Shown: one piece after another, positions 12,523 through 25,998 of the stretch
Numbering within the stretch: the stretch's first letter is position 1
How the letters are laid out: every line of letters begins with the position of its first letter
Assembly (NCBI RefSeq): GCF_000237865.1
Contig: NC_017459.1
Location: forward strand, 150,001-182,000
Direction of reading: 5' to 3'
DNA length: 32,000 nucleotides
Source of the DNA: Haloquadratum walsbyi C23
Lineage (GTDB): Archaea; Halobacteriota; Halobacteria; Halobacteriales; Haloferacaceae
Notes under the pieces: generated by a model
Databases searched by the model: none
Told to the model about the DNA's origin: nothing
What the model saw: the letters and a program-made list of their open reading frames with translations, nothing else
Program-made: the position numbers and the translations under genes

Positions 12523-12632
12523 CAGACATGATAACTGTGGAAAACATAGAAATCCTATCTCGCCTGCATATCATGCTTCACTCTCACGGTTATTGCGCGG
12601 TCTGGATAAAATAAAGATACCATTGCCATTGA

Positions 12633-12839
12633 TATCTTTCTCGGCGTGAGCGCGGAGGAATCCTGAACGTGAGTGTGAGTGGTGGGGATTGGAGGGTCGC
12701 AGTCCCACCATGCATCCAGACGGTGAAAATCGGGCGGTCATCGACTGCTTCCGATCATTGTTTGATTGCCCGAAGTGGCGAAGCCGCCATCGTCGGACAC
12801 GGCAGAATCACCCCGTTCTCGCCTGATTCTTATTTTTGA
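12633..12839 (+). repeat. Short copy (A) of a dispersed element family; it holds an open 68-codon frame with only GTG starts (12669/12675)
   Basis: 12651-12679 matches the reverse complement of 25924-25952 at 27/29 nt. 12778-12797 matches the reverse complement of 25458-25477 at 19/20 nt. A leading hairpin ctcggcg-tgag-cgcggag sits at 12640-12657. The ends are nested-complementary (gaatc/gattc, gaacg/cgttc, ggggatt/aatcacccc). It ends in a T5 run. Confidence 0.8.
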
Positions 12840-12969
12840 AGAGAGTTGTCTGCGAATTAATATCACGGATTGAAATCTCGGGTGATCAGTCGAACGTGGA
12901 ATGCTTCCGGATTGTCCAGACAGACTATTGAGTGATAAGCTTCACCTCTGTTGCCGTTTATCTATATAT

Positions 12970-14769
12970 ATGAGTTCGATTCCCGAACGAAACGAGATTG
13001 AGACCGAATATACCTGGGATCTTTCAGGTATCTATACTGACGCTGCGGAATGGGAATCAGCGTATGAGTCAGTTCAGGATCAACTGACAGATCTCAAAGA
13101 ATATGAAGGACATGTGACTGAGTCGCCGTCAACACTTCTGGAGTTGCTTGAGCAGCGCGAGGAGATATTCCGAACATTGGCAACGGTAAGCACATATGCG
13201 AATCTTCGCAGCGCTGAGGACACGCGTGATCAGGAATCTCAGGCTCGACAGTCGAAAGCTGAGTCGTTATCATCTCGCGCCCGCTCGGCAATTAGTTTCA
13301 TTGAGCCTGAATTGCAGGAGCTTGACAGCGAAGAAATAAGCTCATTCTGCGAACACGAACCGGCACTCAAGCAATATGAACATTTCTTCGATGATGTCCT
13401 TCGGGCAAAGCCACATACGCGATCTTCCGAGGTTGAGTCTGTGCTTGCAGATCTTGGTGAAATCGCGAGTTCACCGTCAGATATCTATGGAATGTTATCA
13501 AATGCCGACATGACATTCCCAACCGTTGATCATCCAGACCCTGGTGAGGATACAATTGAAATAACTCTTGGAAACTTCACAAAGCTACAAAAACATCCAG
13601 ACCGCGCATTTCGACAGACCGTTTACGAGCAGTTCTATGATGAGTGGAAGGATGTTCGGAATACAGTCGGAACCGCATTACAAAACAGCGTAAAGAAAGA
13701 TGTCAAATACGCCCGTGCCCGACGATATGAATCTGCCCGTGCTGCCTCACTTGATGGTCCAAATGTTCCTGTAACGGTATATGATACTCTGTGCGAGACC
13801 GTTCGAGATAATCTTGAGCATCTTCATCGTCATGCCCGACTAAAACAAGCAGCTCTTAATCTTAATGAACTTCGTCCCTGGGATTTTTACATCTCACTCA
13901 CCGGTGATGAGAGTCCTAAAATTCCATATGACCGTGCAACAACATATATTACTGATGCCGTTGCTCCACTTGGGTCGGAATATCAACAGCGTGTCGCTGA
14001 TGGGCTTGAATCTCGGTGGGTTGATGTCTATGAGAATCGCGGAAAACGATCTGGTGCGTTTTCCTCTGGAGCATATGATACGCAGCCATTTATTCTGATG
14101 AATTATCAAGATGATATTTCATCGATGTTTACTCTTGCACATGAACTCGGTCATTCAATGCACTCCGAGCTCGCGAAGAACGCCCAACCGTGGCAGTATG
14201 CTGATTACACAATATTTGTTGCTGAGGTAGCGTCGACAGTCAATGAAACGTTATTAACTAATCATTTGCTTGAAACGCTTGAGGATGACACGCTTCGTTT
14301 ACACATTCTTGATGAGTATCTTGAGCGTGTTCGCTCGACGCTTTACAGACAAACAATGTTTGCAGAATTTGAATCAACCATTCACGAAATAATCGAGGAG
14401 GGTGGCGCACTCACGCCTGATCGCTTTGATGAAATATATCGTGACTTGAAAGAAACATATTATCAACCAGCGGTACTTGATGACCGAATCGCTCGTGAGT
14501 GGATGCGTATTCCACATTTCTATTATTCGTTTTATGTCTATCAGTATGCAACCGGCATTTCAGCCGCTATTGCGATTGTTGATCAAATTGATACAGACGG
14601 AGAAGATGCGGCTGAAGACTATCGAAGTGCACTCGAACTTGGAGGCTCAGCATATCCAATCGATATTCTCCAAACAGCTGGTGTTGATATGACTGATGCG
14701 GCACCAATTGAATCTGCACTCACAGGATATGCCGACTATCTTGATCAGATGGAGGCGCTTATTGAGTAG
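12970..14769 (+). CDS. pepF: Oligoendopeptidase F (M3B family)
   Basis: It has an HELGHSMH zinc motif, about 600 aa, and N-terminal PERNEIETEYTWDLSGIY typical of PepF. The ATG is at 12970. Confidence 0.85.
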   Translation: MSSIPERNEIETEYTWDLSGIYTDAAEWESAYESVQDQLTDLKEYEGHVTESPSTLLELLEQREEIFRTLATVSTYANLRSAEDTRDQESQARQSKAESLSSRARSAISFIEPELQELDSEEISSFCEHEPALKQYEHFFDDVLRAKPHTRSSEVESVLADLGEIASSPSDIYGMLSNADMTFPTVDHPDPGEDTIEITLGNFTKLQKHPDRAFRQTVYEQFYDEWKDVRNTVGTALQNSVKKDVKYARARRYESARAASLDGPNVPVTVYDTLCETVRDNLEHLHRHARLKQAALNLNELRPWDFYISLTGDESPKIPYDRATTYITDAVAPLGSEYQQRVADGLESRWVDVYENRGKRSGAFSSGAYDTQPFILMNYQDDISSMFTLAHELGHSMHSELAKNAQPWQYADYTIFVAEVASTVNETLLTNHLLETLEDDTLRLHILDEYLERVRSTLYRQTMFAEFESTIHEIIEEGGALTPDRFDEIYRDLKETYYQPAVLDDRIAREWMRIPHFYYSFYVYQYATGISAAIAIVDQIDTDGEDAAEDYRSALELGGSAYPIDILQTAGVDMTDAAPIESALTGYADYLDQMEALIE

Positions 14770-14788
14770 GCGTTCGTAGCTATACTTG

Positions 14789-15010
14789 ACGGAGAGGCGA
14801 TGTTGAGCAATTAGCACACTATGCTTGTGTGATATCCTCCTGATGAACGGCGGGGCTTTCCCGCACGGTCGATCCGTGCTAGTTTGGAAACCTCGGGTTT
14901 GTCTCCTGTCGTGATACAGGGAGTGCCACACCCCGTTATCTCTATCCACGGTGGATTCGGGAATACTTTGCTTATTTTCTGACGCTTTCCACAGCGATCA
15001 ACTCGGCGGG
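14789..15010 (+). repeat. Probable diverged third copy (C) of the element family
   Basis: Colinear short matches support it. gggagtgccaca (14919-14930) equals the reverse complement of 25803-25814. The hairpin gcacgg-tcgat-ccgtgc (14863-14879) parallels the reverse complement of 25861-25880. caccccgtt (14929-14937) equals 12809-12817. A gattc..ttatttt tail resembles copy A. Each match is short, so the call is tentative. Confidence 0.4.
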
Positions 15011-15396
15011 AATACCGTCGAACGACCAGATACAACTCCTGATACTGTCCGTTATACCGGGCGGATGAACCGCTTCGATTGGCATTATAGACGGGTTGTA
15101 CCTCTAAACATACTGGTGACGGCAGGGTTTTAGAGTCTGCATTCAGTATAAGTAGATTCTGCAGACGTTGTGGAACATTGATACAATATCAAGTCGGGTG
15201 ACACGTGGTCTGTGTGTCTGAACCGGGGGAAGACCCCGGAAGGGTGGGTATGGACCAGTACTTTGTCTAGCCCGATATTGTTCGACGAGGTAGTGTTCGG
15301 AATCTCAGTGCAACTCAATGTGAGCAAAAATATAAGATATCGCTCATCTGTAACGATGAGTACTTTTTTAGGACGTAATTTGTAGCTAATCTCAAG

Positions 15397-15585
15397 ATGG
15401 TTAGCAGAGAAAGTGTCAACGAAATCTTTCTGCCTGACAAGGAGGATTGTCTGAAATATCTCCGTGAACATCGATGACCAGATGAGGTAACGTGTCCGCA
15501 CTTCCATAGCACTCCGTGAAACATCTTGAATCATCGTCCTACGCAACAGTATCAACGGCTACTCTATGACAATATTTTGAATTGA
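15397..15585 (+). pseudogene. Relic of an IS1595-family transposase N-terminus (Zn-ribbon domain), with in-frame stops and a 3' truncation
   Basis: Hand translation gives MVSRESVNEIFLPDKEDCLKYLREHR*PDEVTCPHFHSTP*NILNHRPTQQYQRLLYDNILN*. This fits the IS1595 Zn-ribbon pattern (F..EE.C..YL...RWP.G..CP.C.S...QRY.C..C), with TGG>TGA at 15475 and Cys>Phe changes. Confidence 0.5.
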
Positions 15586-15629
15586 ACTCCTCAATAAGTT
15601 CTCAGGAGCACTACACGCGGAGGAGGATG

Positions 15630-16574
15630 TCAATCAGTCTCGAAAGTATCTTCGAGTGCATTACTGACTATTTGACCCGGCGGACGATTTTCGACAGACG
15701 CTCGTCGTCGCAGTTCGCGATATAGTGGGATTGGCAATGAAAGTTCAATCGATCCAACAGTGATTCCCCGCTCAGCGAGTGCTTCAGCCGCGGTTGTATC
15801 ATTATCAACCTCACTTGCAATCCGTCGCACTTCACGAACAGTAAGATCAGCATCAATAACAGCCCACGCGAGATCAAGCCGATCAAGCCCTGAGACGCGC
15901 GCAATATGTTTTGCGGCTGTTGGCGCGATATCACCGCGAGCAACATGGCGTCTAATCGCCTGTGGAAGGTCATGCACTCGTGCCCACTTTCGCACAAAAG
16001 AGATTGAAACATCACCACCTGCACGTTCCACCGCTTGCTTATATGACCCAACGCCTCTTACAAGGGCAGCACACGCAGCGGCTCCGCGAAGAATATACAC
16101 ATTGTCATCAGCACCAACAGTGTTCTCAGAAAATGCCCGTACGGTCTGTGCAGCCGATGTAATACTTGCTGGGTCTGTCGGGTCAAATTCAACTGCCTCG
16201 CGTGCCCGCTGTCCTGTGATAGCCGGGTCAGACCGAACAACTGGTTCGCCAACAGGCTCCTCACGATCCGCTGGTGGACGAACTGAGGGGTCTCCGCCGT
16301 CGCTGCGAAGTTGAGTAAAACTTGGTGCAGAATCATCATTATCAATATTACTGTTATTATGTGTCATAGTGAGGCTAATATTAGTATCAGTGTCAGTGTC
16401 AGTGATAGTGATTAAACAAGTGGCTTGAATTTTCGTCTCATCCGACTCAGGTCCAACGTCGATATTGGTATCAATATCGCTGTTTATGTCGAACTCTCGT
16501 TCCGAACGATGTCTCGACACTGAATCCAGCCGGTTGCTAGGTTTCCCACTAGAGTCATAATTATCCTCACTCAT
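15630..16574 (-). CDS. Acidic hypothetical protein: disordered D/T/N-rich N-terminal half, ParB/KorB-like HTH, C-terminal ribbon-helix-helix-like tail
   Basis: VSISFVRKWARVHDLPQAIRRHVARGDIAPTAAKHIARV resembles a ParB-type HTH. IELSLPIPLYRELRRRASVENRPPGQIVSNALEDTF resembles a CopG/Arc RHH. I start at the ATG at 16574 (MSEDNYD). The track start at 16670 adds a basic stretch overlapping the upstream gene. Confidence 0.6.
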   Translation of the reverse strand: MSEDNYDSSGKPSNRLDSVSRHRSEREFDINSDIDTNIDVGPESDETKIQATCLITITDTDTDTNISLTMTHNNSNIDNDDSAPSFTQLRSDGGDPSVRPPADREEPVGEPVVRSDPAITGQRAREAVEFDPTDPASITSAAQTVRAFSENTVGADDNVYILRGAAACAALVRGVGSYKQAVERAGGDVSISFVRKWARVHDLPQAIRRHVARGDIAPTAAKHIARVSGLDRLDLAWAVIDADLTVREVRRIASEVDNDTTAAEALAERGITVGSIELSLPIPLYRELRRRASVENRPPGQIVSNALEDTFETD

Positions 16575-25158: not shown

Positions 25159-25346
25159 GTGATATTGTCACTGTGCAATCAACGGATAGGTTTTGGGGGA
25201 GCGCATTTTATGTGCACACATAGATCATTTAATTATTATCGTTTAAGAAAAAACTGCCAATCTCAGTCGCTATGAGAGATTATACAGGGTCAAGGAGAAT
25301 ACCTGCGGGTTCAGCCGCAGGATAAATCCGACACCCCGGAGGAAAT

Positions 25347-25965
25347 CTACGCTGCAATAGCCACGCTCAGATTTGGGACTCCGGAGCTTGAACTGACAGG
25401 CAGTCCCATATTTATGTAGGAATCAGATCGGGAACAGGGCAGGGCGATTCCGGTCACTCCGACGATGGCTGCTTCGCAACCCCAAGCAATGATAGTGATT
25501 AGTTTGAATAGTTTCACTGACGGTGTCGAATGATGCGGATTCAGCGGCTCCCATCGCCGGCACCGATAATCACGGCGGTAAAGACTTGCACGAATCACTA
25601 TGAGACAGGAATCGGAACCAGTCAGGCGAACGGTCGGTTCATATAATATACTGAGCCGATGCAGATGCAGATGCAGTGCCCGACTGCCTGACAACACCGC
25701 AGAAAGCAACTTCGAGTCCACCGAAGTCTGCCGAACTCCCCAAGGTAAAATCAACTCCGGGAGTCCGGACACGATGGAGGATAGGAATACCGGGGGCTGA
25801 GATGTGGCACTCCCAGCGCTCCCAGCAGTCCCACTCGACTCGCCACAGTCCGTGAACCCCACACGGATTCTCACCGTGCCGGGGTTCGGTGGAACTGCAA
25901 CCCTGAAATCTCCATCATTCACGCTCACACTCACGCTCAAGATTCCTCCGCGTTTACGTGGAGGA
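25347..25965 (-). repeat. Long copy (B) of the dispersed element family; it contains a 197-codon non-acidic ORF (TTG/GTG start)
   Basis: Its 5' and 3' blocks match copy A (see 12633-12839). The leading hairpin cctccacg-taaa-cgcggagg is at 25945-25964. Its 3' module is duplicated internally (ggagtgccaca..gtattcctatcc versus ggagtgaccgg..tgattcctacat). A (GATGCA)3 microsatellite lies at 25658-25675. Confidence 0.8.
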
Positions 25966-25998
25966 GAATGTCAATGGGTGATTCAATATAATTTACTT

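Follow-up and report, generated by a model that had tools for sequence, protein, structure and literature searches.

Two related stretches of DNA, which we call copy A and copy B, lie in a 32,000-nucleotide segment of Haloquadratum walsbyi C23 (assembly GCF_000237865.1, contig NC_017459.1, positions 150,001 to 182,000 of the forward strand; hereafter the window, with positions counted from its first letter). We identify both in one joint reading, and with high confidence, as palindrome-associated transposable elements (PATEs) of the HqIRS56 type, non-autonomous members of the IS200/IS605 family that lack a protein. Both copies are ordinary members of a known, published element class. A preliminary description, made from the letters and a list of open reading frames (ORFs), had reported that the two copies differ in a protein-coding-like way and had kept coding constraint and RNA or MITE structure (MITEs are miniature transposable elements with inverted repeats) as live hypotheses. 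The relatedness it described is real. Positions 12626-12731 align with positions 25977-25866 on the opposite strand (74% identity over 114 columns, E ~1e-13), a second block of 23 nt aligns at 91% identity, and a 29-mer common to A and B gives 2 matches versus 0 expected (100 shuffles). Both elements extend beyond the limits first assigned to them, to the boundaries in Table 1.

PATEs were defined in H. walsbyi by Dyall-Smith et al. 2011 (PLoS One 6:e20968, PMC3119063). That paper characterizes them by the lack of inverted terminal repeats, by palindromes near both termini, by the lack of target duplication, by a length incapable of holding a transposase, and by ends related to IS605-type transposons. 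According to its Table S8, members of the HqIRS56-type group (HqIRS56-70) measure 466-688 bp and number dozens of copies per genome. Table S9 gives HqIRS56 itself as 532-574 bp, with the target TTATA and AATACC-hairpin(TTCAG loop)-GGAT at the 5' end, and a 3' end ...GGGATTCCTCCGCGTGAACCCGGAGGAGGATGTCAA that is near-identical to the 3' end of the TnpB-encoding ISHwa21. We compared our copies all against all and found sharp boundaries common to both ends, 540-700 nt apart. Read in the orientation of the ORF, all copies have TTGACATCCTCCTCCGCG-loop-CGCGGAGGAATCCTGAGCGTGAG at the start and CCTGCGG-loop-CCGCAGG.ATTCTCCTTGA..CTGTATAAT at the end. Reverse-complemented, the start reads ...GGATTCCTCCGCGGTTACGCGGAGGAGGATGTCAA and the end reads TTATA directly followed by CAGRRTCAAGGAGAATACCTGCGG-GTTCAG-CCGCAGGATGAATCC. 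Agreement with HqIRS56 extends to the target, the architecture of both hairpins and the terminal oligonucleotide; the right end, compared by eye over ~45 nt, reads TTGACATCCTCCTCCGCGTAACCGCGGAGGAATCC on the reverse strand versus the published TTGACATCCTCCTCCGGGTTCACGCGGAGGAATCC. From this agreement in target, hairpins and terminus we assign copies A and B to the HqIRS56-type PATEs and conclude that the preliminary description had read the antisense strand.

As tabulated in PMC3119063, HqIRS56 PATEs resemble the window copies in size, in the absence of inverted terminal repeats and target duplication, in the TTATA target, in the left end and in the right end (...GGATTCCTCCGCG-loop-CGCGGAGGAGGATGTCAA), as compared over the published terminal ~45-50 nt. 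They also have heterogeneous cores that are often struck by ~110-bp small mobile repeats and by core deletions. Homology to tnpB 3' ends is reported there for HqIRS71; the homologues in five other genera and the relationship of the right-hand third to the tnpB 3' end, both found here and presented below, are not described for the HqIRS56 family in the portion of the paper available.

On the canonical strand the ends of 24 copies are TTATA directly followed by CAGRRTCAAGGAG... on the left and ...GGAGGAGGATGTCAA on the right, and they are not inverted copies of each other. None of these 24 copies has terminal inverted repeats or a target-site duplication, and the flanks on the two sides are unrelated. 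TTATA is found 5' of every complete left end, in copies from six genera. The left and right hairpins are 96-99% paired across copies, with compensatory changes, and at lengths of 445-690 nt no copy could hold a transposase. A MITE, strictly defined, would be a deletion derivative of a DDE-type insertion sequence (IS), moved via terminal inverted repeats and with neutral internal similarity. Our elements are short, repeated, non-coding and intergenic, and Haloquadratum does carry true MITEs according to PMC3119063. The missing inverted ends and target-site duplications, the subterminal hairpins, the fixed TTATA target with the GTCAA terminus, and the fact that both ends are common to TnpB-encoding IS605-type elements nevertheless rule out a strict MITE, to which we give almost no credence. 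The earlier proposal of RNA or MITE structure is essentially borne out by covarying helices in a non-autonomous transposable element, although the element is a PATE instead of a MITE and its structured module lies opposite the strand that had been analysed.

We scanned genomes, one per species, with a 20-base core pattern and located 16 further copies, all in the Haloquadratum metagenome-assembled genomes (MAGs) J07HQW1 and J07HQW2, plus one chance match. A search of plasmid records returned ~520-nt full-length homologues in Halorubrum, Haloplanus, Natribaculum and Natrinema, and more diverged or shorter ones in Halostagnicola and Haloplanus rubicundus. The plasmid homologues share 68-78% identity by BLAST (70-92% over aligned columns), occupy unannotated intergenic DNA, are each preceded by TTATA and have the terminus GGATGTCAA. 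In the NCBI annotation the bodies of the plasmid copies carry no coding sequence (CDS), and in Haloplanus HW8-1 a single adjacent hypothetical CDS extends over the final ~40 nt of the copy. The copy tree is discordant with the host tree, with one Haloquadratum copy 92% identical to a Haloplanus copy, and copies from different haloarchaeal families are 92-93% identical. The G+C content is 53-60% in every copy examined compared with ~47% for the window. Together, the mismatch of copy and host trees and the higher G+C of the element argue for horizontal spread, and the high identity between families suggests that transfer was recent. As to mobility, which strain-specific insertions would show, the copies occupy numerous unrelated sites in both Haloquadratum MAGs and across six genera; no empty site was recovered for either window copy, and the orthologous locus in other strains also has copy B. 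A phage collection contained no match to copy B, and a scan of viral contigs for the right end yielded one uninformative match, at a contig end. Nine plasmid matches confined to the right end, or to the half of the element that contains it, have no adjacent annotated tnpB and look like other PATEs. We also considered a 3'-untranslated-region element of the upstream genes and rejected it: both window copies follow a gene of the same orientation, but elsewhere the neighbours are unrelated and occur in both orientations.

The Haloquadratum copies (L002-L017 and window 25285-25974) show microsatellite expansions at at least six sites, with the repeats (CTCACR)n, (GGACA/GGATA)n, (GCCCC)n, (GTCCGT)n, (TGCAGA)n and (GACTG)n, whereas the ~520-nt Halorubrum, Haloplanus, Natribaculum and Natrinema copies (L022-L030) have none of them. 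This contrast looks like host-specific repeat instability. In a separate set of loci, L042 combines the 5' flank of L040 with the 3' flank of L041 around near-identical PATE copies, a pattern left either by PATE copies recombining with each other or by a chimeric assembly at the repeat.

Our analysis indicates that the element encodes no protein, and that the open frame is a chance antisense feature of one subfamily. The frame noted in the preliminary description is open for 68 codons in A and 197 codons in B (207 from stop to stop in B), the peptide blocks quoted from it are recovered from both copies, and the net A-B length difference between anchors (354 nt) is a multiple of 3. Scattered stops or frame-breaking indels in other copies had been named as grounds for refuting coding, and both are present. 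When we read the other long Haloquadratum copies from the conserved RGGIL codons, a stop followed within 8-45 codons in 9 of 11, and every copy has 3-13 phase changes compared with copy B. The reported excess of synonymous differences is not seen: by codon position, A and B differ at 3/6/6 sites (first block) and 14/7/9 sites (second block), or 17/13/15 overall without a third-position excess, and the variable sites of all copies number 80/83/81. The synonymous fraction of codon differences is 0.14-0.28 across all six frames (24 copies). Nei-Gojobori dN/dS values in the ORF frame are 0.43-1.1 among orthologous and paralogous Haloquadratum copies and 0.82-1.34 between the Halorubrum, Haloplanus, Natribaculum and Natrinema copies; the control frames (0.36-2.5) spread as widely.

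The translated ORF has no Pfam match, in agreement with the earlier remark that no domain is recognisable. A search of 5.8 billion clusters with it returned just 29, which were either unnamed or labelled "hypothetical" and were each seen on 1-3 contigs. The predicted product is basic, with a high content of Cys, Trp and Arg, within an otherwise acidic proteome, and the frame has no ATG; peptide examples are DFRVAVPPNPGTVR and the tryptic VAVPPNPGTVR and VGFTDCGESSGTAGSAGSATSQPPVFLSSIVSGLPELILPWGVR. Some observations weigh against a purely non-coding element. The synonymous fraction in the ORF frame (0.24-0.28) exceeds that of the neighbouring frames (0.18-0.20), although it is far below the expectation for a constrained gene. 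An open stretch of 207 codons is reached by 0.75% of 2000 dinucleotide shuffles, which is unusual for one sequence but not when such an element is present in many copies. The frame is also open in several paralogues, close ones having inherited it by descent. These points would be accommodated by a small basic protein of ~140-200 amino acids with a GTG or TTG start, at least in the copy B subfamily, encoded by a passenger gene of the PATE. Nine or more database clusters with open frames of 175-198 amino acids, originating from a minimum of three loci, and dN/dS values of 0.43-0.83 in some pairs could be read in the same way. We consider such a gene highly improbable, given that most copies have a broken frame, among them those of Natribaculum, which are near-identical and have spread recently, that cross-genus dN/dS values are 0.8-1.3 with equal values in control frames, that variation is even over codon positions, and that 37 codons inserted by an unrelated mobile repeat leave the frame open. 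The composition of the product and the lack of an ATG, of a Pfam domain and of a CDS on the bodies of the plasmid copies point the same way. The database ORFs occur with and without the 37 repeat-derived residues, and these matches arise because open copies alone are ever called as genes. On the forward strand, the candidate coding sequence is a degenerate TnpB C-terminal remnant alone, which contains stops and has unconstrained dN/dS, and we rejected it as a gene. Of the suggestion that the copies form a recently decayed gene family, one part survives: the right-hand third derives from a tnpB 3' end, on the opposite strand.

The in-frame indels have a different origin. The three clean events described previously are not supported, as the second block aligns with several gaps that are not multiples of 3. 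The putative internal block of ~360 nt reflects no fewer than two unrelated events: copy A has lost internal sequence, and copy B carries a nested repeat of 110 nt. The indel of 6 nt near 12680 represents a change of unit number in a hexamer microsatellite, (CTCACR)n on the canonical strand, which is without counterpart in copies from other genera. Other length differences among close copies correspond to 6-, 9-, 12- and 27-nt repeat units, and 1- and 5-nt indels that break the frame also occur. The 110-nt insert is not in the orthologous PATE downstream of an identical beta-CASP gene on metagenome contig L018 and is present in L019; it recurs elsewhere with 85% identity (L040:62-163 and L042:1321-1422). 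With a net gain of 111 nt the frame survives by a one-in-three chance, and the insert is traversed in full by the 197-codon ORF. By its size of ~110 bp, inverted ends, lack of target duplication and location inside a PATE, the insert resembles the small mobile repeats (SMRs) of Haloquadratum (HqIRS42/43/55) in PMC3119063, an assignment made from size, ends and behaviour. The insert of copy B is located in the PATE core, unlike the site near a terminal palindrome given there for small mobile repeats.

We next consider the relationship of the element to autonomous relatives. A metagenome scan for the right-end hairpin returned at least 120 loci. Among the matches listed, ~25 loci with enough upstream sequence contain a forward ORF of 412-605 codons, which ends 51-67 nt before the right boundary. 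Two of these ORFs were tested, and both are TnpB (Pfam OrfB_IS605 plus a Cas12f1-like TNB domain). The 1.5-kb TnpB-only elements share their first ~50 nt with the PATE left end (83-91%). The last ~160 nt of the PATEs match the last ~150 nt of the TnpB IS at 71-75% identity (E 1e-13 to 1e-25) for the microsatellite-free plasmid copies; in copy B itself the terminal 34-42 nt alone match directly (85-88%). Using tblastn we located degenerate TnpB C-terminal remnants on the canonical strand of the PATEs (EDRSTGWLAQPAV versus EDRSTGGLALPAV, and ...VDCKP versus WDCKP). In TnpB systems, the omega guide RNA is encoded at the tnpB 3' end and right end (PMC10055086). PATEs and TnpB-only IS of the IS1341 type, such as ISHwa21, thus have in common the left ~50 nt, the last ~160 nt with its covarying helices and right-end hairpin, and the terminus GGATGTCAA. 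They differ in that the IS are 1.5 kb long and carry tnpB, whereas the PATEs measure 0.5-0.7 kb and are without tnpB save the degenerate C-terminal remnant, and in that ~200-300 nt of the PATE core have no counterpart in the IS.

The shared right end contains conserved secondary structure. RNAalifold predicts 81 pairs for 20 full-length copies, 12 of them with compensatory changes. We counted 42 compensated cells compared with 14.8 ± 3.1 in shuffles (0/500; slid controls ≤11 cells), and the covariation score is 0.136 versus 0.097 (0/500). When 71 non-redundant tails of PATEs and TnpB-bearing elements were analysed together, 21 pairs and 236 cells showed compensatory change, versus 87 ± 8 cells in shuffles, with a covariation score of 0.232 versus 0.121 that none of 500 shuffles reached (slid controls ≤0.082). 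Columns 124-126/140-142 of this alignment illustrate the exchanges (CG44/GC22; GU25/UA23/GC11/CG7; GC61/AU5). One hairpin stem is GGCTG/CAGCC in tnpB, where it codes for S-T-G-W-L-A-Q-P. At the same position PATEs have GGGGG/CTCCC, GGCGG/CCGCC, GGCCG/CGGCC or GGCCA/TGGCC, and pairing is kept while the coding sense is lost: STGWLAQP becomes STGGLALP as the stem changes from GGCTG/CAGCC to GGGGG/CTCCC. Rfam searches returned nothing meaningful at the gathering threshold for the whole window, or at E up to 10 around both copies.

In canonical order, the element consists of the TTATA target, a ~50-nt left end with the subterminal hairpin, a ~300-nt core of unexplained origin, a ~160-260-nt module derived from the tnpB 3' end (the omega RNA scaffold in relatives), the right-end hairpin and ...GGAGGAGGATGTCAA. 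An IS200-type TnpA supplied in trans may mobilise it as single-stranded DNA, recognising both hairpins and inserting the element 3' of TTATA with no target duplication. The right-end module is probably transcribed as an omega-like RNA, which could load TnpB made elsewhere. Three kinds of observation count against this scheme. We see neither TnpA nor TnpB in the window, and thus infer both the mobilisation and the RNA function, including the use of the module by TnpB in trans. The left ~300 nt of the core are conserved yet unexplained. Wobble pairs favour the canonical strand when the structure is predicted from that forward strand (G-U versus A-C is 262 versus 129), but the counts are just 67 versus 53 for the pairs that predictions from either strand share. 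Support for the strand on which the structure functions is therefore only moderate, and the helices could act as single-stranded DNA.

The last point leads to the alternative that the window copies are ordinary PATEs whose helices are single-stranded DNA signals for TnpA alone, with no RNA involved and with conservation of the module due to recent horizontal spread. The identity of 92-93% between copies from different families and a copy tree at odds with the host tree mean that much of the conservation can be recent descent, wobble counts on the pairs common to both strands leave the strand undecided, and IS200/IS605 transposition uses single-stranded hairpins according to background given in PMC3119063. 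However, compensatory changes are found 60-190 nt from the right end, well past the subterminal hairpin needed by TnpA, and compensation holds between PATEs and TnpB IS despite the lost coding sense. PATEs elsewhere have in addition been linked to RNA: those of Geobacillus stearothermophilus are said to "often encode omega RNAs" that are acted on in trans (Meers et al. 2023, PMC10055086), and a 489-bp PATE of Halorubrum lacusprofundi and virus HRTV-DL1 has one strongly transcribed end (PMC10544981). Like the window copies, these PATEs are gene-less IS200/IS605 derivatives with both ends kept, while in sequence they belong to families distinct from them. We regard the DNA-only explanation as unlikely, but as one to be taken seriously. 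Building on the RNA scheme, we tentatively propose as a possibility that the element is a gene-less "guide-RNA parasite", in which a working TnpB omega RNA scaffold would have been kept by compensatory evolution after the loss of tnpB, together with a conserved, partly structured ~300-nt core of unexplained role, and which would have spread horizontally through at least six haloarchaeal genera.

In addition, GGATGTC, the invariant terminus of the right end, has a complement in GACA.C immediately past the left hairpin (alignment A5, columns 64-70/751-757), and another in GATA of the conserved GAGGATAGG (alignment A7, columns 83-86/431-434). Neither pairing shows covariation in these alignments. 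They might represent the pairing of a TnpA guide with the cleavage site, or an omega RNA pseudoknot.

Table 1. Positions of copies A and B, their parts and a possible third element in the window.
Feature	Position	Strand	Remarks
Copy B: complete element, assigned to the HqIRS56-type PATEs; left to right canonical, 690 nt including the nested 110-nt repeat	25285..25974	+	Boundaries common to 24 other copies; ends match Table S9 of PMC3119063
TTATA target and left cleavage motif, directly 5' of the copy B left end	25280..25284	+	In all complete copies from six genera; same target published for HqIRS56
Left-end subterminal hairpin of copy B, CCTGCGG-GTTCAG-CCGCAGG	25302..25321	+	Helix 2 of alignment A5; 96% paired, 3 pairs with compensatory change
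Nested 110-nt mobile repeat, SMR type, with inverted ends ATAGTGATT...AATCACTAT, in the PATE core	25492..25601	.	Gives 37 codons to the ORF
Right-end module of copy B: degenerate tnpB 3' end, omega-RNA-like scaffold, terminal AGAATGTCAA	25765..25974	+	
(CTCACR)n hexamer repeats in the right-end module of copy B	25916-25941		
Right-end hairpin of copy B	25945-25964		
197-codon ORF of copy B: chance open frame antisense to the element, not a gene	25347..25940	-	
Copy A: decayed, internally deleted PATE relic; right end 12629, degenerate left end ~12957	12629..12957	-	~77% identical to J07HQW2-type copies
Internal-deletion junction of copy A	12731..12736	.	~210-256 nt gone compared with full-length relatives
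Hexamer microsatellite of copy A, (YGTGAG)n on the + strand	12668..12680	.	Unit number 1-8 among Haloquadratum copies
Possible "copy C": orphan half right-end hairpin and terminus (ACGCGGAGGAGGATGTCAA)	15615..15633	+	Third IS605-type/PATE element, split by another insertion

Copy B is structurally complete, save for the nested repeat and a G-U pair in the right hairpin. Copy A is a dead relic, in which the left hairpin and half of the right-end module are gone. Its alignment with Haloquadratum copy L007 places 12626-12731 at reference positions 1-106 and 12736-12953 at 363-638, and the intervening deletion takes out the 5' half of the omega-RNA-like module. The right-end hairpin of copy A (12640-12657) keeps six of seven pairs.

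The two copies adjoin genes of the window. The right end of copy B is located 24 nt past the stop codon of the beta-CASP gene. Synteny with L018 (2369-2380), which encodes an identical beta-CASP protein, breaks exactly at the copy B left end (window 25275-25284); downstream, the window has a Pyr_redox gene and L018 has Fer2 and PHO4 genes. The PATE thus marks the boundary of a rearrangement or indel between strains. The copy A relic stops 13 nt short of the pepF ATG (12970), and the pepF promoter, if any, would therefore be located within the relic or at its edge. This edge (12957-12972) adjoins an AT-rich run, TTTATCTATATATATG.

The 860-nt gap between the pepF and DUF7119 genes (14770-15633) is a pile of mobile-element debris, with a reverse-oriented IS605-type end near 14832-14870 and a fragment resembling IS1595-family transposase genes at ~15340-15502. 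What had been described as a probable third copy carrying stops is possibly the orphan half hairpin at the end of this gap (Table 1). The sequence that splits this third element also interrupts the right-end hairpin of the PATE in L041. The genes of the window include those for histidyl-tRNA synthetase, PepF, the beta-CASP nuclease, a copper ATPase and DUF7563/DUF7119 proteins, as is typical of a low-G+C haloarchaeon, and no tRNAs were found in it.

Taken together, the main value of our analysis is a correction: the protein-like reading of the two repeat copies is an artefact. Apparent synonymous and in-frame differences between repeat copies can be produced by chance and by microsatellites with 6-, 9- and 12-nt units, and the ~200-codon ORF predicted by gene callers in the 29 clusters is a spurious product of a mobile element. 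To the published description of the family we add its distribution across genera, a tnpB-derived omega-like module kept by compensatory change, and microsatellite expansions specific to Haloquadratum. The family has kept the structure of the tnpB 3' end but not its coding sense, in line with a recent view of PATEs as carriers of guide RNAs for TnpB supplied in trans, and it is a compact natural test case for this idea in archaea. If the elements were indeed guide-RNA parasites, every copy would direct TnpB produced elsewhere to cleave unoccupied versions of the site into which that copy is inserted, and a 0.5-kb non-coding element would use RNA-guided homing.

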